Source of the DNA: an uncultured Cytophagia bacterium
GTDB lineage: Bacteria > Zhuqueibacterota > Zhuqueibacteria > Residuimicrobiales > Krinioviventaceae
Direction of reading: 5' to 3'
NCBI GenBank assembly: GCA_964399735.1
Contig: CAYNSO010000003.1
Location: 51,970-115,969, forward strand
DNA: 64,000 nt
Made by a program: the position numbers and the translations under genes. This document shows positions 701 through 64,000 of the stretch, one piece after another (the stretch's first letter is position 1; every line of letters starts with the position of its first letter). The notes under the pieces were generated by a model. It saw nothing but the letters and a program-made list of their open reading frames with translations, was not told the origin of the DNA and searched no databases.

Positions 701-1852
701 TTATATTTTACCCAGCTCGGAAATTTCTGCTGCCATACCGTCCCAACTAAACTTTTTATTCAATTCTTTGATATGGCTGCGCATTGTTTCCACCATTGCG
801 GTATTTAAAGCGCCATCGATAAAAAACCGTCTTCCTGCCACGACAATTGCATCGGCATTGCCCGGCGGCGTCAGGAACCCGGTTTCGCCATCGGTTACAA
901 TTTCGGCAAAACAGCTTAGATCAGAGGCAATAACCGGTTTTTCCATAGCCAGGGCAACCTGCAAAGCCCCGCTGCCGGTTGCCGAGGTATACGGAAAAAC
1001 CGCAATATCGGCGGCTGCATACAGCCGTTCTACTTCTTCATTGACGATATATTCATTCTTGCGGATAACTATTGCTTGCAGGTTATATTCACTGATTTGT
1101 TTTTGGATAATATCTTCTTCTTCATGCCATGCTTCGCCAGTGAGCAGCAAGCGGATATTCGGAAATTCTATTGCCAGAGTTTTCATAGCCTGGAGTAGAA
1201 CCGGCACACCTTTATATTTACGGATAAAGCCGAAAAACATCAGCACCACATGATTTGGATTAAAGCCCAAACGCTTGCGTTCCTCATCTCGCTGAGCAGA
1301 ATTTGTTTTGAAAAAATTATAATTGGGGTGCGCCTTGACCCTGACATTAGCTTTGGGAACCAGGTAAAGCAACGAATCGCGAATTTCACGGGAATGCGCA
1401 ATAAAATAATCACCCATACGCAACACCAGCCGGGTACAAAATTGGCCAAAGCGGCTGGATTCATGTTCAACCACATTATGGCAAATAAAGACAATTTTGG
1501 GTGTTTTTAATATTTTAATGCCGATGCAAATCACCCAGTAAGGCAGCGTCCAGAAAGATACCCACCAGGGAATGATAACCAGCTGCGGCCGGTGTTTTTT
1601 TATGTGAAAGATAACACGAAACCACGATAACGGATTAAGCGAATCCAGTAAATAATCGACTCCCGGTTCTTCCAGTTTCACCTGGCTTTTATCTTTATCT
1701 GTTTGGCCGGGATAAAGCCACATGGGATACTGACGTTTCACCGCGCCCAGCGCCACCTGGTGTTCCTTTTTCAAGGCGCGAAATAATAATGTAGTATAAT
1801 GGGAAATCCCGCCGCGATACGGCCAGGTTGGTCCAAGCATATATATTTTCAT
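701..1852 (-). CDS. Glycosyltransferase family 4 (GT-B, group 1)
   Basis: 383 aa. N-terminal MKIYMLGPTWPYRGGISHYT and C-terminal nucleotide-sugar-binding region with the E-x7-E-like motif (VFPYTSATGSGALQVALAMEKPVIASD), typical of GT4 enzymes. Confidence 0.8.
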   Translation of the reverse strand: MKIYMLGPTWPYRGGISHYTTLLFRALKKEHQVALGAVKRQYPMWLYPGQTDKDKSQVKLEEPGVDYLLDSLNPLSWFRVIFHIKKHRPQLVIIPWWVSFWTLPYWVICIGIKILKTPKIVFICHNVVEHESSRFGQFCTRLVLRMGDYFIAHSREIRDSLLYLVPKANVRVKAHPNYNFFKTNSAQRDEERKRLGFNPNHVVLMFFGFIRKYKGVPVLLQAMKTLAIEFPNIRLLLTGEAWHEEEDIIQKQISEYNLQAIVIRKNEYIVNEEVERLYAAADIAVFPYTSATGSGALQVALAMEKPVIASDLSCFAEIVTDGETGFLTPPGNADAIVVAGRRFFIDGALNTAMVETMRSHIKELNKKFSWDGMAAEISELGKI

Positions 1853-1889
1853 ATACCACCCCTCTGCTGCAAATCACTCCCTGTCCTGC

Positions 1890-2861
1890 TCACTTATCCG
1901 CCTCATCCCTTGCACCGCCTGTTACGTTGCTTTCCATTTTACGAACCCGGTATAATACATTTTCAATCAGCTGGCGGTTGGCGCCTATTAAATCAGCCAG
2001 CAGGCCAATAATAAATATCTGAAAGCCGACAATCAGTAAAACCGCAGCCAAAATCAGGGACTGTATGTGACCGGCCCCGGATACAAATAAATAAAAATAT
2101 AAAAACCGCAGACCGATCAGAGCGCCCAGTAAAAAGATTATTCCGCCAATATAGGTAAACATTTTTAACGGTTCGTACATGGTGTAAATACGCATGATGG
2201 TACTAACGGAACGTTTGATATATTGCCAGTTACTTTTAAAAAGCCGGGATTCGCGTATTTGTTCGTTAACACGCACCGGCACATGAGTAACAACCAGGTT
2301 CTTTTTGCCGGCCTGGATAATCGTTTCCAAAGTGTAGGTAAAGCGGCTGACGACATTGATTTGCATGGCGGCATCGCGCGAAAAGGCGCGAAAACCGCTG
2401 GGGGCATCCGGTATATTTGTATCGGAAACTTGCTGCACCACCCAGCTGCCAAGATTCTGTAGCCTCTTTTTAATCCAGGAAAAATGCTCAATTTCATTAG
2501 TCTGACGGTCGCCAATAACAATATCCGCTTCCTTTTTCAAGATGGGCGTGATCAGCTTTTCAATATCACTGCCGCAATATTGATTATCGGCATCGGTATT
2601 GACAATGATATCTGCGCCCAACTGCAGGCAGGCATCAATTCCGGCGTTAAACCCCTTGGCCAAACCCTTGTTGCGGGTAAAGCTGACAATGTGCTTTACT
2701 CCCAATTCCTGCGCCACTTGTACGGTACGATCACGGCTGCCGTCATCGACAACCAATATTTCAATTTCATCAATCCCGTTTATCTTTTGCGGAAGATCAG
2801 CCAGAGTTTGAGGCAGGGCTTTTTCCTCATTATAACAGGGTATTTGAATGATCAGTTTCAT
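1890..2861 (-). CDS. GT2 polyprenyl-phosphate sugar synthase (GtrB/ArnC/DPM1-like)
   Basis: 323 aa. IQIPCYNEE...VVDDGSRDRT...NTDADNQ (DxD) followed by two C-terminal TM helices (IGGIIFLLGALIGL..., LILAAVLLIVGFQIFIIGLL). This is the architecture of bactoprenol-phosphate glycosyltransferases. Confidence 0.8.
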   Translation of the reverse strand: MKLIIQIPCYNEEKALPQTLADLPQKINGIDEIEILVVDDGSRDRTVQVAQELGVKHIVSFTRNKGLAKGFNAGIDACLQLGADIIVNTDADNQYCGSDIEKLITPILKKEADIVIGDRQTNEIEHFSWIKKRLQNLGSWVVQQVSDTNIPDAPSGFRAFSRDAAMQINVVSRFTYTLETIIQAGKKNLVVTHVPVRVNEQIRESRLFKSNWQYIKRSVSTIMRIYTMYEPLKMFTYIGGIIFLLGALIGLRFLYFYLFVSGAGHIQSLILAAVLLIVGFQIFIIGLLADLIGANRQLIENVLYRVRKMESNVTGGARDEADK

Positions 2862-2884
2862 TTGATTAATTAATCCCGAAAAGA

Positions 2885-3850
2885 TTATTCTACAATTTCT
2901 TCAATATTATATTCAGTAATTTCATTGGCATGGGTATAAATAATCATTTCTCCCAACAAGCCAATGGATATCAATTGAATGCCGATAATAAACAACATAG
3001 CGCCGAGCAGCAGCATAGGCCGTCCGGCAATTGCGCCATAACCTAAAATCCGGTAAATAAACAAATAAATATTGATCACAGCGCCAATCAAGGTAAAGAT
3101 CACACCTATAAAGCCCAAAAAATGCAGCGGCTTTTTAGAGTATTTGCTGATGAAAATGACATTGAGAAAATCCAGTAACCGTTTGATATAATTTTTAGGA
3201 TAAAGGGATTGCTCAAAATGACCCGGCAGTTGTTCAATGCTTTCCTCAGTAATTTTATAACCCTGCCGGTGGGCAAGAACCGGAATAAAGGCATTCAGTT
3301 CACCATAAAAAGGCACATGTTCAAGCAGAGACTTGCGCGTTGCCAGCACGCCGCTGTTAATATCGTGCAGTTGTAATTTGGTCATTGAACTGGTCATGCA
3401 GTTAAACGCTTTAGAGACAAGTTGATTCAACCGCGAATCACGCCGGGGCGAACGCACACCAATAACAATATCAAACCCCTCATCCAGTTTTTGTACAAAA
3501 CGCACCAAATTTTCAGGACTGACATTGACCCGGCAGGTAAAATAAATAATCTTTTCACCGGCGGCCAGTTTCATACCGGCATCCAGTGCAGCAGATTCGC
3601 CAAACATAGTGCGCAATTTGACCAGCTTGATCTTTTGAAATTGACCGGCCAGTTCCAGCATCTTGTTCCAGGTACCGTCGCTGCTGCCGTCATCGACATA
3701 AATGATCTCAAAATCAAATGCAGCGGCAGTAAAGATCTGCTGTAATTGCTGATTCAGTTCCGGCAAATAATCCTGCTGGTTCTGTGCAGTAATTATTATA
3801 GATACCAGTTTATGATCATTATTGCTTGGCATTGGTTTAATTTGCTCCAT
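2885..3850 (-). CDS. GT2 GtrB-like paralog with degenerate DxD motif (possible pseudo-enzyme)
   Basis: 321 aa with the same architecture as its neighbours (IIITAQNQ...VDDGSSDGT, two C-terminal TM helices). At the position where the paralogs carry DAD/DGD it carries FTCRVN instead. Confidence 0.7.
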   Translation of the reverse strand: MEQIKPMPSNNDHKLVSIIITAQNQQDYLPELNQQLQQIFTAAAFDFEIIYVDDGSSDGTWNKMLELAGQFQKIKLVKLRTMFGESAALDAGMKLAAGEKIIYFTCRVNVSPENLVRFVQKLDEGFDIVIGVRSPRRDSRLNQLVSKAFNCMTSSMTKLQLHDINSGVLATRKSLLEHVPFYGELNAFIPVLAHRQGYKITEESIEQLPGHFEQSLYPKNYIKRLLDFLNVIFISKYSKKPLHFLGFIGVIFTLIGAVINIYLFIYRILGYGAIAGRPMLLLGAMLFIIGIQLISIGLLGEMIIYTHANEITEYNIEEIVE

Positions 3851-3864
3851 ATCTTGTATTTACC

Positions 3865-4821
3865 TTAATATTCAAATTTTTTTCGGGAACCGGTATTCAC
3901 TACCAGTTTACCCACCAGACCATAACACATAAATAAAAAAGCAGTCGCCCAAAGTAGCAAAATAAGAGTAATTTGTATATTTAACTTGGCTGCATCAAAA
4001 TGCTGCATCAGAAAATGATACATAAAATGAACAAAAACAATAATACCGGACCAAAAACATAACGAAGCAAAGGCAGAGAAAAAGCGCAAGGGGTTATGCA
4101 AATGCTTCATCAGCAGCCGGATGGTGGTTAAATCCATAATCACGCGAAAAGTGCGGGTAAGATTATACTTGGACTTGCCAAACTCGCGCGCATGATGGGT
4201 TACCGGCATTTCCGTAATCTGCGCGCCCTGCATACGCAACAACGCCGGAATAAAACGATGCAGTTCACCATAAAGCGAGATACTGCGCAACAAATCGCCG
4301 CGAAACGCTTTGAGTGAACAGCCGGTATCGTGCAATTTTACATTCGTTACCGAGCAAATGATTCGGTTGGCAATTTTTGAAGGCACTTTGCGGACAATAA
4401 ACTTGTCCTTACGGTTCTTGCGCCAGCCACTCACCACGTCATATCCTTGTTCCAGTTTTTGCAGAATCAGCGGAATATCTGCCGGATCATTCTGCAGGTC
4501 GCCATCCATAGCAATCACATTAACGCCGCGGGTGGCTTTGAATCCTGCGGCCATGGCTGCCGACTGCCCGAAATTAGCGCGAAACAAAATGGCTTTGAGC
4601 GGTGCGTTTTCCTGCGCCAGGCGGCGCATTACATCGCGGGTGCCGTCGGCGCTGCCGTCATCAACAAAGATCACTTCATAACTCTTGCCCAACTGATCTA
4701 AAACGCCACTTAACACGCACCATACCCGTTCAACATTTTCTATTTCATTATAAAAAGGAATAACAACGGACAGGTATGGTTGCTCCGTTTGCTTTTCGTT
4801 TATTTCTTTTTCATACATCAT
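3865..4821 (-). CDS. GT2 polyprenyl-phosphate sugar synthase (GtrB/ArnC/DPM1-like)
   Basis: 318 aa. LSVVIPFYNEIENV...VDDGSADGT...AMDGDLQND (DxD), C-terminal TM helices. Confidence 0.8.
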   Translation of the reverse strand: MMYEKEINEKQTEQPYLSVVIPFYNEIENVERVWCVLSGVLDQLGKSYEVIFVDDGSADGTRDVMRRLAQENAPLKAILFRANFGQSAAMAAGFKATRGVNVIAMDGDLQNDPADIPLILQKLEQGYDVVSGWRKNRKDKFIVRKVPSKIANRIICSVTNVKLHDTGCSLKAFRGDLLRSISLYGELHRFIPALLRMQGAQITEMPVTHHAREFGKSKYNLTRTFRVIMDLTTIRLLMKHLHNPLRFFSAFASLCFWSGIIVFVHFMYHFLMQHFDAAKLNIQITLILLLWATAFLFMCYGLVGKLVVNTGSRKKFEY

Positions 4822-5407: not shown

Positions 5408-6737
5408 TCATTGAATAAAGACGGGCAGTTAATATGATATACACATTATAAAGCAACAATATGGAAATAAATACATTAAAAACAACTTTAACATGCACCG
5501 GACGGTGTAAAATTTTCAGCTTTTTTTCCGGTAATTGCGTTATGATTAAATTAATCACAAACATAAATGGCAAATACAGGGCAAGAATATGCCGTACCGA
5601 AGGTCCCAGGTAATTCCACCAGGCATTCAAACCAAAAAACACTCCAAAATAACAAAACAGGAACAGGAATAAAAACAAATGCTGTTTTAATAATTGCCAG
5701 GCTCTTACCCGGTTCATAAACAGGACGAGCAGAAAGTACAGAGTATAGAAAAAAATGAACCAGAAATAACCATACGCCTGTTTACTGGCTTTGATGGAAG
5801 TGATGCCGCCCGTCCAAACCCGGTTAAAAACCTGGGCCAGGGTATGTTCCTGGAAATACTTTTTCATACCGGGAATCTGCTCCGGGGGCATTTGTGGCCA
5901 GCCGACCCGGTCGCCATGAGCGCGGGTGCCGCTTTTCATTTGCTCGCGGGAATCGTACCACATGTAAAAAGTAGAATTAACATTATAAAAATACTTGCCG
6001 AATATCTTTTTATTGTTTTGAATATAGGGGTAAACAATTACAATAAATGTAACAAGTACCAATACAAGACTGACAAAGGGCACAAGCTGCTGTTTGAGGT
6101 TAATGGAATGAGACGTGCGATTGTGCAGACCAGTTATAAACACATAAATCTGTTTACATGTAAACCACACTGCCAGCAAACCCAAAGCCGGCATTACCGA
6201 TGCTTTGGTTAGAAAGGTGAGCCCGGTAAAAACTCCGGTAAGAATTGCATAATACCAGGTTGGCGCTGTAAACATTTTCAGAATGAGTAAAAAGGTAAGG
6301 AATGATAAAAAGAAAAATAATAACTCGCACTGAAAATAAGGCGCTTTAAAAATAAACACTGTAAATGCGGTTATAAAAAAAAGGTTTACAGCGGCATGGC
6401 GCGGGAAAAACCTGAAAAAAATCCACGCCAATGCGGCCAGTATCAATAAAGCGATTATTATATTTATCCGCTTACCCAGCACAAAATAATCATCCAGCGA
6501 CATACCCGTTTTATAAAACACCGACAGGATCAGGGGATACAAGGGGTGACGATTGCGATCGCCGGTAAAATGATAATTGGTATCGTGCAAATTGTGGGCA
6601 TAATACATATATGCGCCCTGGTCAAATTTGTTATAATCGGTATTCACCTCGCGGGCGTGCCGGTCTGCGCCATAATAAAAAATTCCAATGAACAAAGCTG
6701 CAACCAGGATAACAAGCGCAATTTTTAAATACTTCAT
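5394..6737 (-). CDS. GT-C fold membrane glycosyltransferase (ArnT/PMT, GT39/GT83-like)
   Basis: 447 aa, about 11 predicted TM helices. The first loop carries FDQGAYMYYAHN, resembling the D-E/Q-x-x-Y loop motif of the ArnT/PMT_2 family. It lies adjacent to the GtrB-like GT2 genes. Confidence 0.6.
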   Translation of the reverse strand: MKYLKIALVILVAALFIGIFYYGADRHAREVNTDYNKFDQGAYMYYAHNLHDTNYHFTGDRNRHPLYPLILSVFYKTGMSLDDYFVLGKRINIIIALLILAALAWIFFRFFPRHAAVNLFFITAFTVFIFKAPYFQCELLFFFLSFLTFLLILKMFTAPTWYYAILTGVFTGLTFLTKASVMPALGLLAVWFTCKQIYVFITGLHNRTSHSINLKQQLVPFVSLVLVLVTFIVIVYPYIQNNKKIFGKYFYNVNSTFYMWYDSREQMKSGTRAHGDRVGWPQMPPEQIPGMKKYFQEHTLAQVFNRVWTGGITSIKASKQAYGYFWFIFFYTLYFLLVLFMNRVRAWQLLKQHLFLFLFLFCYFGVFFGLNAWWNYLGPSVRHILALYLPFMFVINLIITQLPEKKLKILHRPVHVKVVFNVFISILLLYNVYIILTARLYSMNGGM

Positions 6738-9630: not shown

Positions 9631-10665
9631 TTATTTTACCGCCATGTCAATTTCATTATCTTTTATTTCTTTAATAACAGTAAGAGTGGATTTATTGCCA
9701 GGCGAACCCAGAATGAAAAAGACCGCTCCTGCCAGCGCGGAAATCCACAGAAAAACCAGTTGAATGATACCAAATACTACGGCATGTTCTGTGGCAACAT
9801 TGAACCAGGAAAAAAACACCACATACCCCGCTTCACGAATGCCATACCCGCCGATCGAAGGCAGCAGTTCAGCCACAAAGATCATGGGAATGACTATGGG
9901 GAAACTATACCAGGGCGCATTAAAGCCCAAAATCGCTTTGGCTATCAAATACCCTGTAAAAATAAAAATTACCTGGTTCAAAAACGAATAGACGCTGACC
10001 ATAAAAAAATCTTTGGGATATTTGCGGCTTTCCTGGAAAACCTGCATAAGATCTGTAATACTGTTCCAGAATTTCTGAAACGGCAGCTTTATGGCTATTT
10101 TTTGGTAAAGTTTAAAAAATTGTGGAGAAATAATAATAATTCCCAATATCACCAGCAAGATGGAAAGAACAATAACCGATGGCAGAGCATCCTGCAGCAT
10201 TGGAATGCTGGATGAGGCAATAATACATGCCGACAGGGCAATAAAAACAGTAACAAACATGCCGGAAAGCCGTTCAACCAGAATCGTACCCATAATACCA
10301 CCTAGCGAATACTTGTGGTTCCTGGCAATCACAATAGCACGAATTGCATCACCGCCGCGGCCGGTAGGTAAAAACGTGTTGAAAAAACCGCCGATCATAT
10401 AACCGTAAAAAGATTCACCAAAATTGAGAGCATAGCCGCTGATTTTACCAACAACCACCCAACGTAAAGCACACGGAATAAGACGTAAAAGATAAACTAA
10501 AAAAGCAATAATCAACAACAAAAAATTGATTTGGCTAAATTTATCTAGTACATCGTTCCACTTGACAGTAGAAGCAAACCAGCCGATAGCGCCTAACGAA
10601 AAAAATATTTTTATGAATAACCAAAAGATATTCGATCTGGATTTGCCGGGTATATTAATTGACAT
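9631..10665 (-). CDS. Flippase-like membrane protein (MprF flippase-domain / LPG_synthase_TM / UPF0104 family)
   Basis: 344 aa, about 8 TM helices. N-terminal basic stretch, then FLPTGRGGDAIRAIVIARNHKYS, which matches the G-x-D-x-x-R signature of the family. Confidence 0.6.
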   Translation of the reverse strand: MSINIPGKSRSNIFWLFIKIFFSLGAIGWFASTVKWNDVLDKFSQINFLLLIIAFLVYLLRLIPCALRWVVVGKISGYALNFGESFYGYMIGGFFNTFLPTGRGGDAIRAIVIARNHKYSLGGIMGTILVERLSGMFVTVFIALSACIIASSSIPMLQDALPSVIVLSILLVILGIIIISPQFFKLYQKIAIKLPFQKFWNSITDLMQVFQESRKYPKDFFMVSVYSFLNQVIFIFTGYLIAKAILGFNAPWYSFPIVIPMIFVAELLPSIGGYGIREAGYVVFFSWFNVATEHAVVFGIIQLVFLWISALAGAVFFILGSPGNKSTLTVIKEIKDNEIDMAVK

Positions 10666-42454: not shown

Positions 42455-43240
42455 TTATTTTGTCAAATTACCCGGAGGCAAGGTTACAGAAAATTGTTGC
42501 GCTTTACCATTTTTCCATTGTAAAACCTCCGGCACACCGTTATCGATAACAGCAAATGTAAAATCATCCATCCAGTAACCGGGGTTAATATACCATCCTC
42601 CGCCATGTTGCTCCAGCGCCGGCCAGTGAGTATGTCCCAAAACAACATAATCATAACCATCGGCTATTCGCGCATAAGCAAATTCGCGGTAATCCATATC
42701 GGAATAGCCGGAACGATCCCTGGAAGCTTGCCGGCTAAGATGGGAACAAAATAGAGCCAGCGGTATGCCCAGATCGGGATGCAACATCCTGTACAGAGAT
42801 GTATTTAACGGACTGCGCAGCACTTTTTTCATAGCCCGGTACAAATAATCTTTTTTCAACAATCCGTCACCGTGTTTCATAAAAATTTTATAATTTTCAT
42901 TATTGATGACATAATCATCAAGGTGAAGATGCAAGCCGACTTCATTCTTCATAAATGACCCCAGCCAGAAATCATGGTTTCCAGCCATATAATGAATCTC
43001 TTTCCCGGAGCGGCAAAGATTGGTCAATAAAGAGATAATATGAAAATGCCGCTGGGGAATGGCGTGACGGTACTCGAACCAAAAATCAAACAAATCGCCG
43101 ACGATCACCAGAATTGCATCCTGAGCGGCAAAATATTCTAAAAAAGAAACGAGATGATGTGCTTTTCTGGCTTCTGCTTCATGATCCTGGGCGCCTAAAT
43201 GGGCATCGGAAAGAAAATAAATTTTACTCATTAAAATCAT
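42455..43240 (-). CDS. Calcineurin-like metallophosphoesterase, LpxH-like (UDP-2,3-diacylglucosamine pyrophosphatase family)
   Basis: 261 aa. Metal-binding motifs IYFLSDAHLG, GDLFDFW, GNHDFW, typical of LpxH-like phosphoesterases. Confidence 0.6.
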   Translation of the reverse strand: MILMSKIYFLSDAHLGAQDHEAEARKAHHLVSFLEYFAAQDAILVIVGDLFDFWFEYRHAIPQRHFHIISLLTNLCRSGKEIHYMAGNHDFWLGSFMKNEVGLHLHLDDYVINNENYKIFMKHGDGLLKKDYLYRAMKKVLRSPLNTSLYRMLHPDLGIPLALFCSHLSRQASRDRSGYSDMDYREFAYARIADGYDYVVLGHTHWPALEQHGGGWYINPGYWMDDFTFAVIDNGVPEVLQWKNGKAQQFSVTLPPGNLTK

Positions 43241-43445
43241 CCATCCTGTTTAAAAAATAAATTAAACAAACATGGATTCAAATGCAAGACCAGAATGCAA
43301 CCAGTGATATAAATACAGGAAAACAGCAAAATTAAAGCACCCATTATTTAAAAAGAGTTGACAAATAATTAAAAGTTTATTACTTTTTAACTTACATACA
43401 TCATTTTTTTTAAATAGCAGAAAAAAATTGGAGGCAGATTTGACA

Positions 43446-43730
43446 ATGGAAGCATTAGGTCTGGTAGAAACTCGTGGATTTATCCCCGCCATCGAAGCGG
43501 CTGATGCCATGGTAAAAGCAGCAAATGTTCAACTGGTTGGCACCGAACGGGTAGGCAGTGGTTTGGTTACAGTTATCGTTCGTGGTGATGTTGGCGCTGT
43601 CAAAGCGGCCACCGATGCCGGCGCTGCTGCCGCTGAAAAAGTTGGCGAACTGGTTTCAGTTCACGTTATTCCGCGTCCTCATTCCGAGGTTGAACAAATT
43701 TTACCCAAAGTAAAAACATCCGTAAAATAG
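43446..43730 (+). CDS. Bacterial microcompartment shell protein, BMC-H (PduA/EutM/CcmK-like, Pfam00936)
   Basis: 94 aa [82 protein letters not shown], near-identical in pattern to PduA/EutM. GGAGG lies 11 nt upstream of the ATG at 43446. The ORF track uses an upstream TTG at 43428. Confidence 0.85.
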
Positions 43731-43857
43731 TTACTTTCGGTTCGGAATAATCATTTAACTTTCAGGATATACCGGGTTTTATTCCAGACCCTGTTATATC
43801 ATTATTACTATAACATTTTATTATTTATCTATTCCAATGCAGATTACAGGAACATAA

Positions 43858-44724
43858 GTGCAAATTTCATCTTTTGCTAAAATCAACCTGGGCTTGAGAA
43901 TTCTGGGGAAGCGTAATGATGGTTTCCATGAATTAGAGACTATTTTCCAAACGATCAGCGTACATGACGATTTAGAATTTTACCCGGCGGATAAAGAGAT
44001 CACCTTGAAAGGAGATTCGCCGGGCTGTTCGTCAGAACACAATCTTGTTTATAAAGCAGCGTTATTGCTAAAACAGCATTGCAGTATTGAGCAAGGGTGC
44101 ATAATAAAACTCGATAAAAGAATTCCAGTCGGAGCAGGCTTGGGCGGGGGCAGCAGTAATGCCGCAACAACCCTGATTGCCCTGAACAATTTATGGAATA
44201 TTGGCCTTAAAACTGATTCGCTGCTGTCTCTTGCGGCGCAGCTTGGTTCCGATGTACCTTTTTTTATTATTAAAGGAACGGCATTGGGTCAAGGCAGGGG
44301 TGAAATATTAACGCCGCTTGATTTTTCCCTGCAATTCCATGGGGTGCTGGTTTGCCCCGATTTGCGTATAATAACGAAAACAGCTTATGAAATGCTTAAT
44401 TTTAGCTTGACAAAGTCATTTAAAAAAAGTAAATTTAGTGTCTTGACAAGATGGAAGACCGATTACAAGATATGGAATACACAACTGGTAAATGATTTTG
44501 AACCAGTAATATTTAACGCATATCCTGAACTGAGTCAAATTTTCCAAGATTTTAAAAAGCAGGATGCGTTTTATTCCCGGATGTCAGGAAGCGGTTCAAC
44601 AATGTTTGGCTTGTTTGAAAATGAAGAAAAGGCAGTAAAAGCCCGGCAGTATTTTCAAAAAAAATACAAAACCTTTATTTTTACGCCGCTTTATCAAAGT
44701 ACTATAATAACTGAATCCGGATAA
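43858..44724 (+). CDS. ispE: 4-diphosphocytidyl-2-C-methyl-D-erythritol kinase
   Basis: 288 aa, GTG start. N-terminus FAKINLGLRILGKRNDGFHEL and GHMP-kinase motif PVGAGLGGGSSNAA. Confidence 0.85.
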   Translation: MQISSFAKINLGLRILGKRNDGFHELETIFQTISVHDDLEFYPADKEITLKGDSPGCSSEHNLVYKAALLLKQHCSIEQGCIIKLDKRIPVGAGLGGGSSNAATTLIALNNLWNIGLKTDSLLSLAAQLGSDVPFFIIKGTALGQGRGEILTPLDFSLQFHGVLVCPDLRIITKTAYEMLNFSLTKSFKKSKFSVLTRWKTDYKIWNTQLVNDFEPVIFNAYPELSQIFQDFKKQDAFYSRMSGSGSTMFGLFENEEKAVKARQYFQKKYKTFIFTPLYQSTIITESG

Positions 44725-44906: not shown

Positions 44907-45911
44907 ATGAAAAAACAAATTGACAAAAAAAATAGTATTGGAATGGTGAATTCATCAAATGCACCCGAAATTAAAATTTTTTCGGGGCGATCAAATCCCG
45001 GCCTAGCTGAAAGAATTGCCTCGATTTTAGACAAGCCTCTTGGGCAGGTTGAAATCAAAAATTTCTCCGATGGGGAAATTTGGGTTAAATATAATGAAAA
45101 TATTCGGGGTACTGATGTTTTTATCGTTCAACCGACAAATGCACCGGCAGAAAATCTGCTGGAATTGCTCATTATGATCGATGCGGCGCGGCGGGCTTCT
45201 GCTTCCTGCATTACTGCAGTTATCCCTTATTTTGGGTATGCCCGGCAGGACAGGAAAGATCAGCCAAGAGTGGCAATCAGTTCCAAACTGGTGGCCAACC
45301 TGATCGTCAAAGCCGGGATTAACCGGGTATTAACCATGGATTTACACGCCCCGCAAATTCAGGGTTTTTTTGATATACCATTGGATCATTTATATGCCGC
45401 CACTTTATTTATTGATCATATAAAAAAATTAAACCTGCCGAATCTGGTGGTCGCTTCACCGGATATTGGCGGCATTCATTTGGCTCGCGCTTATGCCAGC
45501 AGGCTGGGTTCGGATCTGGTTATGATGAACAAACGTAGAATAAAACATAATGTATGCTGCGTTACGGAACTGATTGGCGATGTTCGTGATAAAAATGTTC
45601 TCGTTGTTGATGACATCATCGATACTGCCGGCACCCTGGTTAACGGTGTTAAAGTTTTAAAAGATAAAGGCGCCAATGATATTTATGTAGCGTGTACTCA
45701 TGCCTTGTTATCGGGCAATGCTGTGGAATTGATTCAGAATTCAAATATAACCAAAATATTTTGCAGCAATTCAACCAGTTTGCCGGAACATAAAAAGCTC
45801 GATAATATGGAAGTCCTTTGTATCTCCAGGTTATTGGCTGAAGCAATTACACGAATACACGAAGAGAGATCGATTTCCGATCTGTTTCCACAAAAAGGAC
45901 CAATGCATTAA
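44907..45911 (+). CDS. prs: Ribose-phosphate pyrophosphokinase (PRPP synthetase)
   Basis: 334 aa. IKIFSGRSNPGLAERIA, PRPP-binding loop VVDDIIDTAGT. The true start may be the internal Met at MVNSSNAPEIKIFSG (44943). Confidence 0.9.
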   Translation: MKKQIDKKNSIGMVNSSNAPEIKIFSGRSNPGLAERIASILDKPLGQVEIKNFSDGEIWVKYNENIRGTDVFIVQPTNAPAENLLELLIMIDAARRASASCITAVIPYFGYARQDRKDQPRVAISSKLVANLIVKAGINRVLTMDLHAPQIQGFFDIPLDHLYAATLFIDHIKKLNLPNLVVASPDIGGIHLARAYASRLGSDLVMMNKRRIKHNVCCVTELIGDVRDKNVLVVDDIIDTAGTLVNGVKVLKDKGANDIYVACTHALLSGNAVELIQNSNITKIFCSNSTSLPEHKKLDNMEVLCISRLLAEAITRIHEERSISDLFPQKGPMH

Positions 45912-46619: not shown

Positions 46620-47201
46620 ATGCCCGAAACATATTTCATCGTCGGATTGGGAAATCCAGGTCGCCGGTATAGCAAAACTCGTCATAATACAGGTTTTATG
46701 GTTGCAGACAAGATAGTGTCAACGTTTTATGGTTCTTTGGAAAAAATAGAAACACTTGCGGAAATTGCACACCTGACAATTAGCCAAAAACAGGTAATTG
46801 TTGCAAAACCGCAAACATATATGAACAACAGCGGCATTGCCGTTAAAGCCCTGGTTCAGCGTTTTAATATAAATCTGGATCATTTACTGGTCATTTATGA
46901 TGATGTTAATCTTGAATTTGGCCGGCTAAAAATTAAAGGCGGAGGAAGTTCCGGAGGGCATAATGGAATGGAATCAATTCTGTTTCATTTACAGTCCGAT
47001 GAATTTCCACGGTTACGGGTGGGCATAGGTTCGCCCAAAATGGCACACAATATGGTTCGCTTTGTATTATCCGGTTTTACACGAACCGAACGGCAATTAA
47101 TGAACGATATTGTACATAATGCAGAAAAAGCAGCGACCAGCTTTATAATGGACGGACTTGAAAAAACAATGAATAGTTATAATGCCAAATTGAATAAATA
47201 A
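46620..47201 (+). CDS. pth: Peptidyl-tRNA hydrolase
   Basis: 193 aa. YFIVGLGNPGRRYSKTRHNTGFMV is the canonical Pth N-terminus. Confidence 0.9.
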   Translation: MPETYFIVGLGNPGRRYSKTRHNTGFMVADKIVSTFYGSLEKIETLAEIAHLTISQKQVIVAKPQTYMNNSGIAVKALVQRFNINLDHLLVIYDDVNLEFGRLKIKGGGSSGGHNGMESILFHLQSDEFPRLRVGIGSPKMAHNMVRFVLSGFTRTERQLMNDIVHNAEKAATSFIMDGLEKTMNSYNAKLNK

Positions 47202-47221: not shown

Positions 47222-47734
47222 TTGCGTAAATACGAAACCATATTTGTAATTGATTCGTTACTAAAATCAGATGAAATTGAAAGCATCATTACAAAATATG
47301 AAAAATTTATCTCGGCAAATGGCGGACAAATTGAAACATTGGAGCGGTGGGGCAAAAAGAGACTTGCCTTTGAAATTAAAAAAAGACAATATGGTTATTA
47401 TGTCTTTATTCGTTTTGACGGCAGCCCGTCTATGATCAAACCGCTGGAACGGGAATATCGTTTGAATGAATCAATTTTACGCTATAAAACAATTTTATTA
47501 TCAACAATGGCTTTAAAAGCGCTGGCGATACAGCAGGCAATGGGTTTAACAAAAAGAGCACAAGAGGAATCAGAAGACAAAACTGCTGCGGTTCAAGTTG
47601 CGCCGGTTGATGTTGCGCCGGTTGATGTTGCGCCGGTTGATGTTGATGATGATAGTGAAATCACGAAAAGTTCACAGCAAGAAAATGATTCATTACAAGC
47701 CGAACAACCTGTGGAAGAAAAACAAGACGATTGA
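47222..47734 (+). CDS. rpsF: 30S ribosomal protein S6 with extended acidic/repetitive C-terminal tail
   Basis: 170 aa, TTG start preceded by AGGAGG. N-terminal S6 fold (RKYETIFVIDS...). The C-terminal tail contains (VAPVD)x3 and is acidic. Confidence 0.85.
   Translation: MRKYETIFVIDSLLKSDEIESIITKYEKFISANGGQIETLERWGKKRLAFEIKKRQYGYYVFIRFDGSPSMIKPLEREYRLNESILRYKTILLSTMALKALAIQQAMGLTKRAQEESEDKTAAVQVAPVDVAPVDVAPVDVDDDSEITKSSQQENDSLQAEQPVEEKQDD
47597..47641 (+). repeat. Perfect 3 x 15-nt tandem repeat (GTTGCGCCGGTTGAT) inside the rpsF tail
   Basis: Read directly from the sequence. Three identical in-frame copies encoding VAPVD, followed by GTTGATGATGAT. Confidence 0.85.
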
Positions 47735-47823: not shown

Positions 47824-48351
47824 ATGTCCGAATTGAAAATGCCTGATATCAATAATGTGCTGATTGCCGGAAATTTAACGAGCGATCCTATATTTCGAAA
47901 AACCAATAATGGAACATCTGTAACAAATTTCTTTATTGCTTCAAATCGTAAATACCGGGATAATTCCGGTATATGGCGAGAGAACCTTTGTTATGTTGGT
48001 GTTGTTGCCTGGCATAGATTGGCAGATACATGTAATGAAATTTTGAAAAAGGGCAGCGCCGTTTTGATTGATGGAGAATTACAAAGCAGAAACTGGCGGA
48101 ATGAAGATGGTACCAGCAGAAATGTAGTAGAAATTCGTGCACGGAGAATTCAATTCCTTGACAAAGCATTATCGGCAGAAGTTGAAGAAATGGCAATTAA
48201 TGATAGTGAAGAAAAGACTAACATAACAAATGATGAACAACCGGGTATCCAGCAGCCAATTCCGGAAGAAAATATTCCCATTGCACCAATAAAAGAAATC
48301 AAGGTGGAACCAACTGAATTTGATTTTGGTTATAAAAATTTGAATCTATAA
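47824..48351 (+). CDS. ssb: Single-stranded DNA-binding protein (OB fold; between rpsF and rpsR)
   Basis: 175 aa. OB-fold core (NNVLIAGNLTSDPIFRKTNNGTSVTNFFIASNRKY...WHRLADTCNEILKKGSAVLIDGELQSRNW). The C-terminus ends ...FDFGYKNLNL rather than the classic DDDIPF. Confidence 0.7.
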   Translation: MSELKMPDINNVLIAGNLTSDPIFRKTNNGTSVTNFFIASNRKYRDNSGIWRENLCYVGVVAWHRLADTCNEILKKGSAVLIDGELQSRNWRNEDGTSRNVVEIRARRIQFLDKALSAEVEEMAINDSEEKTNITNDEQPGIQQPIPEENIPIAPIKEIKVEPTEFDFGYKNLNL

Positions 48352-48372: not shown

Positions 48373-48594
48373 ATGCTCAAAAAGAAAAGGATTTGCAGAT
48401 TTTGTGAAGAAAAAATCTTGTATATCGATTATAAAGACGATAAAAAGCTGCAACGATTCACAACCGAACAAGGGAAAATTATCCCCCGCAGAACATCTGG
48501 CACATGTGCAAAACATCAGCGTCAGTTGGTCAAAGCCCTTAATTTGGCCAGAGAAATCGCTCTGATACCATACGTTGCAGATTTGACTAAATAA
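48373..48594 (+). CDS. rpsR: 30S ribosomal protein S18
   Basis: 73 aa. [17 protein letters not shown]...[17 protein letters not shown]. Confidence 0.9.
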
Positions 48595-49336: not shown

Positions 49337-49528
49337 GTGGAAAGTACATTTCCGAAATGCCAAAAATGTAATAATGGAATACTGATTCCCTTGTCAGATT
49401 ACGGCAGAGATGGCGCGACGATCATGTACAAAGCATGGGTTTGCACAAATCCATCCTGTGGATTTAACATCAGAATTGATAACGGTGAAATCAGTCTGGG
49501 TAAAGAAATTAAAGAATCCACAAAATAG
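49337..49528 (+). CDS. Small zinc-ribbon protein (CxxC...CxxxxC), hypothetical
   Basis: 63 aa, GTG start preceded by AGAGGGA. Cys pairs CQKC and CTNPSC, about 30 residues apart. Follows a 277-nt leader/intergenic region. Confidence 0.35.
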   Translation: MESTFPKCQKCNNGILIPLSDYGRDGATIMYKAWVCTNPSCGFNIRIDNGEISLGKEIKESTK

Positions 49529-49564: not shown

Positions 49565-50539
49565 TTGTCTATTTTGAAACTGATTAAAAAAAATATCCTG
49601 TTTAAACAGGAATTAAGCTTTTGGAGGCGGCATAAAGTAAAAATTATTTCCACTCTTGTCGCCTTATTTGTCTGGTTTTTAATTGTATCAGGGGGTACTT
49701 TTGATTACAATGTGTCAATTCCAATTACCTGTACCAATACCGGGGATAGTTACATTGTTGTTAATAAATTACCAAAAAACGGCCGGGTTATTCTCCGGGG
49801 TCAGGGTATTCATTTAATGGTTTTTTCTTTATTTAAAGAGGGACGCTTAAATATTGAACCGCAATGGGAAGCCGGACAATCATTTATTTACCCTTCTGAA
49901 AAAGATGTAATATTGTATGGCAATGCGCTAAAGTTACAAATTGTAAAACTGACAGAACCGGATTCAATTGAATTACAGATCGAAAAACTGATTATACGCG
50001 AAGTTCCTGTAATAAATCAGGTTAATATCGTTCCCACAATTGGTCATACAATCGTTGGCGATATTATTATTGAACCGGATATTGCACTGATTAAAGGGCC
50101 AAAATCTATTGTTGATACAGTGAATTCTATATATACAAAAAAAGCCAAAGTTGAAAACATAAAATATCCCCTGCAAAAACAAATCGGCCTGATAAAACCA
50201 GCTATCCCCAATCTTGAACTGTTAAACAAGAATACTATGATAACCGCGGATATTCAAAAATTGATGGAGAAAAAAATAACCAATATCCCGGTTACGATTA
50301 TTAATCTTCCTCCCAATGTTTCCGCACTAATTATCCCATCACACATTTCCCTGGTAATACAAGGTGGTGCAAACCTGGTTTTTCCAGTAAACGAAAAAGA
50401 TATTGAAGCATATATCGATTATGCCAGGCAGCGCCCGTCCACTCAGCAGGATTTTCCAGCTTATATAAAACCAATTGCCGGGATTCGTTATCGCGATATT
50501 GAACCAAAACGCTTCAAGGTCATTCTTGAAAGAGAATAA
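49565..50539 (+). CDS. YbbR-like domain protein
   Basis: 324 aa, TTG start. N-terminal TM helix (IISTLVALFVWFLIV) followed by repeated beta-rich YbbR-like modules. No diadenylate cyclase gene is adjacent. Confidence 0.5.
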   Translation: MSILKLIKKNILFKQELSFWRRHKVKIISTLVALFVWFLIVSGGTFDYNVSIPITCTNTGDSYIVVNKLPKNGRVILRGQGIHLMVFSLFKEGRLNIEPQWEAGQSFIYPSEKDVILYGNALKLQIVKLTEPDSIELQIEKLIIREVPVINQVNIVPTIGHTIVGDIIIEPDIALIKGPKSIVDTVNSIYTKKAKVENIKYPLQKQIGLIKPAIPNLELLNKNTMITADIQKLMEKKITNIPVTIINLPPNVSALIIPSHISLVIQGGANLVFPVNEKDIEAYIDYARQRPSTQQDFPAYIKPIAGIRYRDIEPKRFKVILERE

Positions 50540-51684: not shown

Positions 51685-53853
51685 ATGTTATTTTTAACCA
51701 TATCACAGTTCCATATTGCTGCAAAAAGTGTTTTGCTTTTATTTGCATTTATTATTGCAGGTATTTTTTTTACCCTTTATATTTATCGTTTTACCATCCC
51801 CCCTGTTTCATTATTTTTGAAAAGAATAATGTCCGGTTTACGTATAATTGCTCTGCTCCTGCTGCTTTTTGTAATATTTGAACTATCAGTAAACCTGATA
51901 AAAACCCGCAAAGACAAACCCCAGGTTGCAATAGCAATTGATACTTCGGCCAGTATGGCGGTAAAAGACGAAACCGGCATTCGTGCCGAAATCATTAAAG
52001 AGGTTTTACAAAACCCTGCATTTGCATACCTGCAGAACAATTTTATTATGAATTATTACACTTTTTCCAATACAACTCTAACTCATAAACAAGCGGATTC
52101 TTTGTTCTTTTCCGGTGATGCAACCAATATTATTCAATGTTTGCAATTTATAAAAAAAGAATTTACAGAAAAAAATCTTGCTGCAATCATTATGCTTTCC
52201 GATGGAAATTATAACCGGGGTGGCAACCCGGTGCGAATAGCGGAGCAACTGGGTACGCCGGTTTTTACAGTTGGCCTGGGTTCCGCGGAACCGGTAAAAG
52301 ATTTAGCCATTATCGAAGTTGAAAACAATTCGTTTTGTTATCTCGATGAATCCACACCGGTAAATGTCACAATCCGTAACCGCGGTTACGGGGAAATCGG
52401 CCTGCCAATATCTCTGACTGTTAATGATGAACTGATTGAAACTCAAATGCACACCCTGCCGGCTTTATCCGAACTTGAAGCTACCTTTAACGTAACACCA
52501 AAAATAACCGGAATCAATAAACTGGTTATCAGTATACCGGTGCAAAAAAATGAATTAATCGAACAAAATAACAGCCGCACAATATATATTGATGTTTTAA
52601 AATCCAGACTTTATATTCAGATTTATGCAGGTAGTCTGTCGCCTGATATTTCATTCCTGAAAAACAGTATTCTGTCGTCAAAACGATACTCTGTCGGTCT
52701 TTTAGTTGAAAAACCGGGCGGCGGTTTTTACAATTATGATAATGACACACAAGATACAGATATAATAATATTTATAGATTTTCCTACAGCTGTTACAGAC
52801 CAGGCGACTTTGACCCGGCTACTAGACGCTATGGAGACAAATGCGACTCCACTCTGGGTGATTACCGGAAAAAACATCAACCTGAAAAAATTATCCGCAT
52901 TTGAAAACTGGCTACCCTTTAAATGTAACGCCAATTACATAAATGAAACTCAAATTTATGCAGAACCCGGAGAAATTGGAAAAAACCATCCCATTCTTCA
53001 GCCGGCAATGCAAACATCAACCTGGATCTCAGCCTGGTTAAAATTGCCGCCAATATATACAATTCATCAGTTCCAACAATTCTGGCCTGAAACACAAACC
53101 CTGGTTAATGCAAGAACAACGTCAAGCCAACAGAACGCAAAAACCCCTGGTTCGCTTGTCGTCATTAGAACCAGGCAAATGCATAAATCTGCTGCAATTT
53201 TAGGGTATGGTTTATGGCGTTGGGAATTATTAATGAGGGGGGTCGGTGACGATAGCGATATTTATAATAATTTTATTAATAACATGTTACAATGGCTTGA
53301 AACAAAAAAAGAAACAAGCGCCTGGCAAATTAAAACCGATAAACAACATTATAATTTCGGGGAACCAATTAAAGTAACCGTAAATATAACAAAGCAGGCA
53401 TTGGCAATGGTAAATGAACCGGAATTAACCCTGTTACTCAACCATAAACAGGGTCAGGAATCTGTTACCGTATCCCGATCCGGTGATGACAGCTATTCAA
53501 ATGTTTTATACCTGGATAAAGCCGGCGATTACCAACTGACGCTTGATAGCGCCACAATGTCACATATTACCAATAAACCCGATGAAGCAGTGTTTAGCAT
53601 TGGTGAATATAGTGTTGAACTGAATAATACGCAATTACAAAAACCGACATTACAGGACCTGGCGCTCAATAGCGGTGGCAGATACGTTGAGCCGGACTCG
53701 GTAGCTTTACTGCAAAAAGTGATTCATGGCGCTACCAGAACCAGCGCCCAGGCCTGGAATAAGGAATTATGGAATGAAAAATATATTCTTTTTTTAATCA
53801 TCTTTTTATTAGCTCTGGAATGGTTTTTGCGTAAGAAAAAGGGAATGCTTTAA
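51685..53853 (+). CDS. Membrane-anchored vWA-domain protein with N-terminal double-TM anchor (BatA-like architecture, longer)
   Basis: 722 aa. Two N-terminal TM helices, MIDAS-like motif VAIAIDTSASMAV, large extracytoplasmic region, and a C-terminal TM helix (ILFLIIFLLALEWFL). Confidence 0.55.
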   Translation: MLFLTISQFHIAAKSVLLLFAFIIAGIFFTLYIYRFTIPPVSLFLKRIMSGLRIIALLLLLFVIFELSVNLIKTRKDKPQVAIAIDTSASMAVKDETGIRAEIIKEVLQNPAFAYLQNNFIMNYYTFSNTTLTHKQADSLFFSGDATNIIQCLQFIKKEFTEKNLAAIIMLSDGNYNRGGNPVRIAEQLGTPVFTVGLGSAEPVKDLAIIEVENNSFCYLDESTPVNVTIRNRGYGEIGLPISLTVNDELIETQMHTLPALSELEATFNVTPKITGINKLVISIPVQKNELIEQNNSRTIYIDVLKSRLYIQIYAGSLSPDISFLKNSILSSKRYSVGLLVEKPGGGFYNYDNDTQDTDIIIFIDFPTAVTDQATLTRLLDAMETNATPLWVITGKNINLKKLSAFENWLPFKCNANYINETQIYAEPGEIGKNHPILQPAMQTSTWISAWLKLPPIYTIHQFQQFWPETQTLVNARTTSSQQNAKTPGSLVVIRTRQMHKSAAILGYGLWRWELLMRGVGDDSDIYNNFINNMLQWLETKKETSAWQIKTDKQHYNFGEPIKVTVNITKQALAMVNEPELTLLLNHKQGQESVTVSRSGDDSYSNVLYLDKAGDYQLTLDSATMSHITNKPDEAVFSIGEYSVELNNTQLQKPTLQDLALNSGGRYVEPDSVALLQKVIHGATRTSAQAWNKELWNEKYILFLIIFLLALEWFLRKKKGML

Positions 53854-63118: not shown

Positions 63119-64000
63119 TCAGTGTCTATTATTATGTGACCTGTCATTTTTATAATCAAGCGGATTAATTTGCAAATTGCGAATTTTTTGTTGCAAAAAC
63201 TGTCGTTTCATTTCCAATAATTTTGCTGCCTGGCTCACATTGCCCAAGGTCATTTTAAGAGCCTGATCGATCATACTCCATTCAAATTCACGAATCACCA
63301 GGTCTTTGGCATTGCTGAATGACACATCACCAGGCGCTAAATTTAAAAGATTTTGCGGGGTCTTTACCAACTCCGGGGGTAACAAATCGACAGTAATCAG
63401 CGGCTTTTCTGCCAGCACAACGCATTGTTCCAAAACATGTATAAATTGCCGAACATTTCCTGGCCAGTCATAATCCAGTAATAACTGCATAGCGGCAGAA
63501 TCAAAAGCTTGTATGTTTTTTGCATGCTTTTCAGCATAAACTTGCATATAATGGTTAGCCAGAACAGGAATATCAATTTTACGTTCGCGTAATGCCGGCA
63601 ACTGAATTTCTACAACCTTGATGCGATAATATAAATCCTCCCGGAATCTCCCCTCTTCAATTTCTTTGCGTAAATTTTTATTGGTAGCGCTAATCAACCG
63701 AACATCAGTTTGCAGCATTTTTTTGCCGCCCAAACGGGTAAAGGCTTTTTCTTCCAAAATTCGCAGAATTTTCGCCTGCGTGTCTATGCTCATATCGGCA
63801 ATTTCATCCAGAAACAGGGTGCCGCCATTGGCAATTTCAAACTTGCCCTGACGCTGGTTGATAGCCCCGGTATATGCTCCTTTTTCATGTCCGAACAACT
63901 CACTTTCCACCAGGTCTTTGGGAATAGCTGCACAGTTCATGGTAATAAAAGGCCCTGTTGCTCTTGCGCTGTATGAATGAATTGTCTTGGCAGCCAGTTC
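63119..64000 (-). CDS. Sigma-54-dependent transcriptional activator (bacterial enhancer-binding protein), N-terminus beyond window end
   Basis: AAA+ sigma-54 interaction domain with the GAFTGA-type motif (ESELFGHEKGAYTGA) and Walker B (GTLFLDEIADM). C-terminal Fis-type HTH (LGNVSQAAKLLEMKRQFLQQKIRNL). The ORF is open to the window edge. Confidence 0.85.
   Translation of the reverse strand, partial: ELAAKTIHSYSARATGPFITMNCAAIPKDLVESELFGHEKGAYTGAINQRQGKFEIANGGTLFLDEIADMSIDTQAKILRILEEKAFTRLGGKKMLQTDVRLISATNKNLRKEIEEGRFREDLYYRIKVVEIQLPALRERKIDIPVLANHYMQVYAEKHAKNIQAFDSAAMQLLLDYDWPGNVRQFIHVLEQCVVLAEKPLITVDLLPPELVKTPQNLLNLAPGDVSFSNAKDLVIREFEWSMIDQALKMTLGNVSQAAKLLEMKRQFLQQKIRNLQINPLDYKNDRSHNNRH

Follow-up and report, generated by a model that had tools for sequence, protein, structure and literature searches.

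A PduA/EutM-like shell-protein gene upstream of ispE in a KSB1 (Zhuqueibacterota) subclade, a candidate hexamer of a fragmented microcompartment

The window analysed here, the whole 64-kb stretch of contig CAYNSO010000003.1, contains one gene for a bacterial microcompartment (BMC) hexamer protein, BMC-H, between an LpxH-like phosphoesterase gene and ispE. We propose, with modest confidence, that its product is the standard hexamer of a microcompartment encoded elsewhere in the genome, most likely one of the FRAG3-like fragmented (FRAG) type. It is suggested that in one KSB1 (Zhuqueibacterota) subclade the gene lies between an ancient sigma-70-type promoter and ispE as the probable first cistron of an ispE-prs-L25-pth-S6-ssb-S18-L9 operon, so placed that it would be expressed alongside core housekeeping genes and not induced with a catabolic locus. 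The PduA-like hexamers would tile edge to edge via conserved Lys, Asn and Arg edge residues around a central Gly-Ser-Gly pore, and the shell would be closed by BMC-P pentamers encoded elsewhere; partner shell genes are expected in the same genome. This proposal rests on the identity of the protein, its isolation over 74 kb, the conservation of its position, purifying selection, a conserved putative promoter, the presence and absence of the gene at one and the same junction, and a FRAG-type gene pair at the corresponding site of a distant relative.

The flagged interval (43241-43857) holds a single gene, whose open reading frame (ORF) begins with ATG on the plus strand (Table 1). The ORF list offers an alternative TTG start at 43428, giving 100 aa, and the ATG is preferred because the orthologues all begin with MEALGL. 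Residues 3-78 of the protein match Pfam PF00936 along all 75 positions of the profile (1-75), with 106.6 bits where 24.5 would suffice (E=6.2e-31), in agreement with an earlier interpretation of the bare DNA (the sequence-only reading), which had called it a canonical PduA/EutM-type BMC-H of 94 aa. The best matches among natural structures are EutM from Clostridium difficile (4AXJ, E=2.6e-41) and PduA from Salmonella (3NGK, E=8.8e-39), to both of which it is about 80% identical in a collinear alignment of residues 2-88; the Haliangium BMC-H (E=4.8e-32), CsoS1 and CcmK score lower. Against the NCBIfam EutM equivalog NF012018 it reaches 130.2 bits, below the cut-off of 133, and the protein is therefore PduA/EutM-like but can be named as neither. 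In published work on PduA, residues K26, N29, S40 and R79 line the edges and the pore of a hexamer that forms shell facets. The positions aligned with them, including S40 in the Gly-Ser-Gly pore loop and R79 in the IPRPH motif, are all kept in the window protein, from which hexamers tiling into sheets or facets may be predicted, and they are also kept among the orthologues with one exception, an Arg-to-His change in L091 (L numbers designate the loci compared). There the gene (10001-10285) reads IPHPH for IPRPH, with His at the position aligned with R79, which could be either a sequencing error or a real change of a tiling residue.

The gene is isolated from other microcompartment genes. Profile hidden Markov models (HMMs) were derived from 64 BMC-P and 120 BMC-H sequences. 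Searched with them in all six frames, the 64-kb window yielded a single BMC-domain ORF and none for BMC-P; the same search of five orthologous loci (20-kb stretches of L001, L005, L006 and L007, and the 7.6-kb contig L009) recovered one BMC-domain ORF in each and no BMC-P. Pfam scans covered about 50 of the 57 large window ORFs, four ORFs in 701-4821 being judged via identical copies in L094, which gave glycosyltransferase hits. The 10 kb further left, also represented by L094, show only glycosyltransferases in the Pfam listing and no shell gene, leaving about 53 kb to the left (43 + 10) and 20 kb to the right of the gene free of BMC-P and other BMC-domain ORFs. The sequence-only reading had reported the location between phosphoesterase and ispE and the lack of a microcompartment locus nearby, and both statements hold. 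It had also counted aldehyde dehydrogenase, PduCDE/EutBC, a glycyl-radical enzyme and PduL/pta among the neighbours; this was mistaken, for no aldehyde dehydrogenase, PduCDE/EutBC, glycyl-radical enzyme or PTAC was found by Pfam in the window ORFs scanned. The cluster of shell and enzyme genes that makes up a PDU, EUT or GRM metabolosome locus is absent from the window and the 10 kb to its left. By its spacing the gene agrees with the definition of a satellite locus (Axen 2014; Sutter 2021) as a shell gene lying away from the main locus, and, as in FRAG3, it is dispersed and remote from recognisable microcompartment enzymes, its neighbours being cell-wall, exopolysaccharide, isoprenoid, phosphoribosyl pyrophosphate (PRPP) and ribosomal genes.

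The position of the gene is conserved. The gene order phosphoesterase (-) / BMC-H (+), ispE, prs, L25, pth, S6, ssb, S18, L9 is shared by about nine distinct related loci, among them L005/L006, L007, L009, L091, L096 and L097; across these loci BMC-H identity is 83-99%, as against only 40-80% for the neighbouring proteins. NCBI and Logan contigs carry the identical protein among the same neighbours, and orthologues of 86-96% identity are found at this position in six more lineages: L007 (GCA_016934825.1, candidate division KSB1 by its NCBI name), L009, L091/L092 and L096 (JGI), L097, L006 (a 6.5-Mb circular contig) and L005 (a 3.6-Mb contig). On the JGI contig L092, ispE is split into ORFs of 165 and 118 aa (5820-6658) and L25 is split too; these are probably assembly frameshifts and not pseudogenes. 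In a more distant KSB1 metagenome-assembled genome (MAG), L100 (GCA_016931775.1), the BMC-H is 83% identical to that of the window; the contig starts 31 nt before the gene, and the rightward gene string is unchanged. This L100 protein (32-313) is 91-92% identical to P0071, P0032 and P0056 but only 83% identical to the core KSB1 orthologues, and the three sequences may point to more lineages that have this arrangement or, alternatively, to an acquisition of its own.

Comparison of the window with L005/L006 shows how differently the genes of this region have evolved. Identity is 40% for MreC, 52% for Pth, 57% for IspE, 59% for L25, 60% for the phosphoesterase and 79% for Prs, and 92% for BMC-H. 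Among the orthologues the pairwise ratio of nonsynonymous to synonymous substitution (dN/dS) of BMC-H is 0.03-0.06, with dS ranging from 0.26 to above 2, where synonymous sites are saturated. The far better conservation of BMC-H than of its neighbours, together with the low dN/dS, indicates that the gene is old, has become fixed at this site and evolves under strong purifying selection.

The intergenic DNA upstream of BMC-H is unalignable among the orthologues apart from two blocks (alignment A1, 6 loci). Block 1, a putative promoter, is invariant in the orthologous loci save at three positions, two in the spacer and one in the -10, even though synonymous sites are saturated among these loci, and an invariant GGAGG follows about 45 nt past it. 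The block occurs once in the window, with 0 occurrences expected by chance, and lends substance to the suggestion of the sequence-only reading that the gene has its own promoter. An exact-pattern scan of metagenome contigs with block 1 returned only three further orthologous loci and gave no hint of a regulon shared by dispersed shell genes. Block 2, next to the start of the phosphoesterase gene, faces the other way, its columns being invariant in A1; it is probably the promoter of the leftward mreCD-PBP2-rodA string, as judged from its sequence, or possibly a regulatory site. A similar element, AAAAGCAAG.ATGAAC, is recognisable in two relatives that lack BMC-H, L101 and L102.

The spacer between BMC-H and ispE is poorly conserved and can be much shorter, with a gap of only 68 nt in L005 and of 25 nt in L100. 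Terminator-like sites in the spacer are not in excess over shuffled expectation, and it has no Rfam match, so no RNA motif is recognised. Four of the five spacers folded no better than their shuffles, that of L091 alone doing better, and no hairpin is common to them. A terminator, attenuator or riboswitch between the two genes was rejected for want of an Rfam match and of a conserved fold or hairpin. Since BMC-H stands between promoter and ispE, it is probably the first cistron of the ispE operon and would be co-transcribed with it.

The two relatives without BMC-H, L101 (KSB1, GCA_016929055.1) and L102 (an 897-kb contig, ERZ928041), were reached by an IspE search. They possess the same phosphoesterase (-) / ispE (+) junction in the same flanking gene order, with gaps of 132 and 71 nt, respectively, and no BMC domain is present in about 18-21 kb around the junction. 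Directly before ispE, L102 carries AAAAAAGTTGACA-17-TAATAT, which has the A-tract, the -35 and an AAAAGTT spacer motif in common with block 1; this likeness implies that BMC-H sits between the apparent ancestral operon promoter and ispE. In neighbour-joining trees of 5-7 concatenated neighbour proteins the carriers form one clade with L101 and L102 outside it, with a bootstrap value of 96.5% for the core and 62.5% when L100 is included.

The most distant relative compared, L103 (GCA_014359355.1, labelled Calditrichaeota), has different genes upstream and two BMC-H genes directly before ispE-spoVG-prs-L25-pth. One encodes a standard protein of 98 aa, 81% identical to the window BMC-H, and the other a 150-aa protein whose C terminus is extended by about 60 residues; the pair is preceded by a putative promoter, TTGACA-17-TAACTT. 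With L103 as outgroup, ancestral presence would cost two losses plus the loss of the extended paralogue, and independent gain would cost two insertions at the same site; an ancient single gain of BMC-H is possible and compatible with the explanation that we favour. The window BMC-H shares 86-89% identity with those of ordinary EUT/PDU loci and is thereby closer to them than to its positional counterparts in L100 and L103, so identity cannot decide between gain and loss.

Shell genes scattered in this manner have been catalogued before. According to the accessible part of the Sutter 2021 catalogue (PMC8217296), the shell genes of FRAG types are spread over as many as six places, mostly far from enzymes; the types share a BMC-P triplet, and encapsulation peptides were not found in FRAG genomes. 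FRAG3 consists there of one standard BMC-H and one with a C-terminal extension of about 50 aa, and its BMC-P triplet belongs to the green, grey and orange clades. Its taxa, in that part of the catalogue, are mostly Calditrichaeota, with one member each from LCP-89 and 'candidate division KB1'; the latter is probably a misprint for KSB1, because the NCBI taxonomy listing has no such name. Poribacteria are given as the main FRAG2 phylum (Sutter 2021, PMC8217296, as far as accessible). In the literature on KSB1/Zhuqueibacterota we found no discussion of microcompartments.

A scan of reference genomes with the BMC-H protein fetched 80 loci, mostly Firmicutes PDU/EUT and none of them KSB1. Five of the 80 (four Poribacteria and one Acidobacteriota), each with the full 10 kb on both sides, hold a single BMC-H and no BMC-P, and a sixth lone BMC-H, L075 (Acidobacteria), has no BMC-P in a shorter stretch. 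A lone BMC-H is therefore a recognised pattern, and lone or dispersed BMC-H genes are already catalogued as satellite loci and FRAG types in the accessible text of Sutter 2021 (PMC8217296); to call a solitary BMC-H unusual, as the sequence-only reading did, was an overstatement. L084 was ruled out as a MIC4 locus; it has a class II fructose-bisphosphate aldolase, an isochorismatase and a PduS-like protein. A pair of standard and extended BMC-H genes without BMC-P within 10 kb is present in two Rhodothermales-type loci, L079 and L099.

The extended proteins of L103 (7504-7956), L099 (10001-10456) and L079 (5972-6451) have a C-terminal motif in common, roughly L-[ST]-V-[RK]-x-L-R-x-hAR-x-x-PG-x-x-hxGR-x-hSRA-x-[KR]-x-x-L-h-x-x-L. 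By eye this resembles a helix-extended-helix nucleic-acid-binding motif (SAP or Rho-N-like); Pfam detects only the BMC domain in these proteins. Directly after the BMC-H pair, L079 (6455-7465) and L099 (10673-11656) carry a YbbR-like gene, with Pfam hits just below threshold and BLASTP similarity (E=2e-6) to the YbbR-like protein of the window (49565-50539). In KSB1 the co-directional string that holds BMC-H also includes the YbbR-like gene, about 6 kb further downstream. There may be a wider link in the FCB group between FRAG BMC-H genes and this housekeeping string.

Several observations tell against a FRAG3-like microcompartment. No BMC-P, BMC-T or second BMC-H was seen in the carrier stretches (the window plus 10 kb and the five orthologous loci). 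No second BMC-H was found on the 6.5-Mb circular contig among the best 120 homologue matches, and the extended BMC-H of L079 as query found no known KSB1 contig among its best 120 matches, both being weak negatives. The KSB1 loci have only the standard BMC-H at this site and not the FRAG3 pair, and the window protein is about 81% identical to those of L103, L099 and L079 as against the 86-89% for ordinary EUT/PDU proteins, so the KSB1 protein has no specific sequence tie to the FRAG-type BMC-H. Furthermore, two KSB1 MAGs, unplaced relative to the carriers, have conventional MIC4/SPU3 main loci in the accessible part of the Sutter 2021 catalogue (PMC8217296). The latter would suit an ordinary satellite gene that supplements or tunes a conventional main locus elsewhere (BMC-H, BMC-P and enzymes, for example SPU3 or MIC4); in the same part of that catalogue, satellite loci with nothing but shell proteins form a category of their own and are common. 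We consider such a satellite possible but unlikely: the BMC-H of KSB1 MIC4 is of another subtype (H_camo2, 96-100 aa) and not PduA-like, and the closest parallel in position is offered by L103, with its FRAG-type pair upstream of ispE. Of the roles offered by the sequence-only reading, a shell gene serving components elsewhere is nonetheless the best supported, in view of the FRAG and satellite pattern catalogued in the accessible text and of the L103 pair.

The missing partners could also mean that these genomes have no vertex or other shell proteins at all; the hexamer would then be produced constitutively along with the ispE operon and serve as a sheet, tube or scaffold. PduA-type hexamers expressed alone assemble into sheets and nanotubes, no partner gene is present in the 74 kb or in the stretches of L001, L005, L006, L007 and L009, the 6.5-Mb contig shows no second shell gene among the matches listed, and the housekeeping promoter context is unlike that of inducible catabolic microcompartments. 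The more than 80% identity to true shell proteins, with edge and pore residues kept, fits unchanged shell constraints, and related phyla with a lone BMC-H are catalogued with BMC-P triplets elsewhere in their genomes in the accessible part of Sutter 2021 (PMC8217296); on balance we think a stand-alone protein improbable. A narrower form of it, in which BMC-H is the only microcompartment gene left in, or ever gained by, the KSB1 subclade and was captured behind a housekeeping promoter as a constitutive, compartment-independent lattice or scaffold, appears to us more doubtful still. A recent horizontal insertion or a decaying, functionless relic, finally, has almost no claim to belief. It could appeal to the absence of the gene from the identical junction in the KSB1 lineages L101 and L102, to its closest non-syntenic relatives, which are EUT/PDU BMC-H proteins labelled Desulfobacterales among the matches listed, and to its base composition: the sequence-only reading had found the gene richer in GC than its neighbours and thought horizontal acquisition possible, and its overall GC of 0.495 is indeed the highest of the 57 genes (window mean 0.414). 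The excess stems entirely from codon positions 1 and 2 (GC1 0.705, GC2 0.432), whereas GC3 is 0.347, below the mean GC3 of 0.402 (rank 50 of 57) and host-like. The site is moreover fixed at dS 1-2, dN/dS is low across lineages with saturated dS, and ORF, promoter and ribosome-binding site are intact or conserved in the about nine distinct loci. The 'recent' and 'decaying' versions are refuted by dN/dS and GC3, and the BMC-H gene is neither a recent import nor a relic.

The features of the region are listed in Table 1.

Table 1. Features around the BMC-H gene and elsewhere in the window
Feature	Position	Strand	Remarks
Calcineurin-type metallophosphoesterase, LpxH-like	42455..43240	-	Pfam Metallophos and Metallophos_2; heads the leftward cell-wall string
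Putative divergent promoter, block 2	43262..43288	-	TTGCAT-17-TAATTT; columns invariant in A1 (6 loci)
Putative promoter, block 1	43350..43386	+	37 nt, AAAAAGAGTTGACAAATAATTAAAAGTTTATTACTTT; -35 TTGACA 43358-43363, 17-nt spacer, -10 TACTTT 43381-43386
Shine-Dalgarno sequence GGAGG	43430..43434	+	11 nt before ATG; invariant in alignment A1
BMC-H gene	43446..43730	+	94 aa, PduA/EutM-like, one canonical non-permuted PF00936 domain
BMC-H-ispE spacer	43731..43857	+	Poorly conserved sequence
ispE	43858..44724	+	Pfam
prs	44907..45911	+	Pfam hits on record for L001
L25	45957..46583	+	Pfam hits on record for L001
pth	46620..47201	+	Pfam hits on record for L001
S6	47222..47734	+	Pfam and ORF list
ssb	47824..48351	+	Pfam and ORF list
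S18	48373..48594	+	73-aa ORF at the position carrying PF01084 in related loci
L9	48598..49059	+	Pfam and ORF list
Sigma-54 activator fragment	63119..63940	-	Second strand switch near 63.1 kb

The phosphoesterase keeps its position throughout the related loci; against the NCBIfam LpxH equivalog it scores 93 bits, below the cut-off of 134. Leftward from it (-) follow mreC, mreD, PBP2, rodA, lgt, an outer-membrane barrel, a tetratricopeptide repeat (TPR) protein, glycogen synthase and an exopolysaccharide cluster. Past L9 the rightward order (+) is a 63-aa protein, the YbbR-like protein, tsaD, TPR proteins and ExbBD/TonB. The sequence-only reading had located BMC-H at the only strand switch of the window; the sigma-54 activator fragment near the right end is also encoded on the minus strand. 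GC skew is negative to about 43 kb and positive past the strand switch at BMC-H, with a cumulative minimum at 43-44 kb. A replication origin at this switch was rejected, as there is no DnaA-box cluster, and the change in skew is probably a strand-of-transcription bias.

The exopolysaccharide or capsule cluster extends over more than 40 kb (701-33201 in the window plus the 10 kb further left in L094) and comprises many GT2/GT4 glycosyltransferases, a Wza-like exporter, a GNVR/P-loop tyrosine-kinase-like protein, sugar epimerases and dehydratases, acetyltransferases, two LPG_synthase_TM proteins, a polysaccharide deacetylase and PMT-family transferases. The 63-aa ORF (49337-49528) between L9 and the YbbR-like gene has two CxxC pairs and is zinc-ribbon-like; it occurs in nearly all related loci and has no Pfam hit. 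A conserved protein of about 720 aa without significant Pfam family (51685-53853) comes after tsaD in those related loci that extend to this point, and L102 diverges there.

FRAG microcompartments occur in many uncultured phyla, and their cargo and function are still obscure. The fixed site behind a putative promoter, together with the L103 pair, gives a hint of constitutive FRAG shell expression. If the window BMC-H is the main FRAG hexamer, these shells would be constitutive rather than substrate-induced, which would narrow the search for their role and provide a simple genomic marker; if the genomes have no vertex proteins, they would exemplify how a shell protein can serve in nature without any compartment. 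A BMC-H gene placed first in the ispE operon and preceded by an invariant putative promoter was not found in the accessible part of the Sutter 2021 catalogue (PMC8217296), and the FRAG-type pair at the ispE site of a Calditrichaeota-labelled MAG is likewise not described there.

Of the known systems, PduA and EutM resemble the window BMC-H in their single PF00936 domain, the same length, about 80% identity and the aligned edge and pore residues; unlike them, the window gene lies outside a PDU/EUT locus and has no signature enzyme, BMC-P or BMC-T nearby. The CcmK3/CcmK4 satellite loci of beta-carboxysomes are, in the accessible sources, an analogous case of BMC-H genes apart from the main shell operon and under separate transcriptional control, but they serve a known main locus and cargo and encode divergent permeability-modulating paralogues and not a canonical major hexamer. 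Haliangium ochraceum also has one standard BMC-H and a shell with a BMC-P triplet encoded partly in satellite loci, as far as the accessible text describes it; its BMC-H, however, shares a main locus with an aldehyde dehydrogenase and further shell genes. FRAG3, as described in the same portion of the literature, differs in that the KSB1 loci have the standard BMC-H only and in that the BMC-P triplet is its defining feature. FRAG3 is like the window gene in its standard interface residues, its remoteness from enzymes and other shell genes and its fitting taxon range, and like the KSB1 site in that L103 has a FRAG3-style pair at the same place upstream of ispE.

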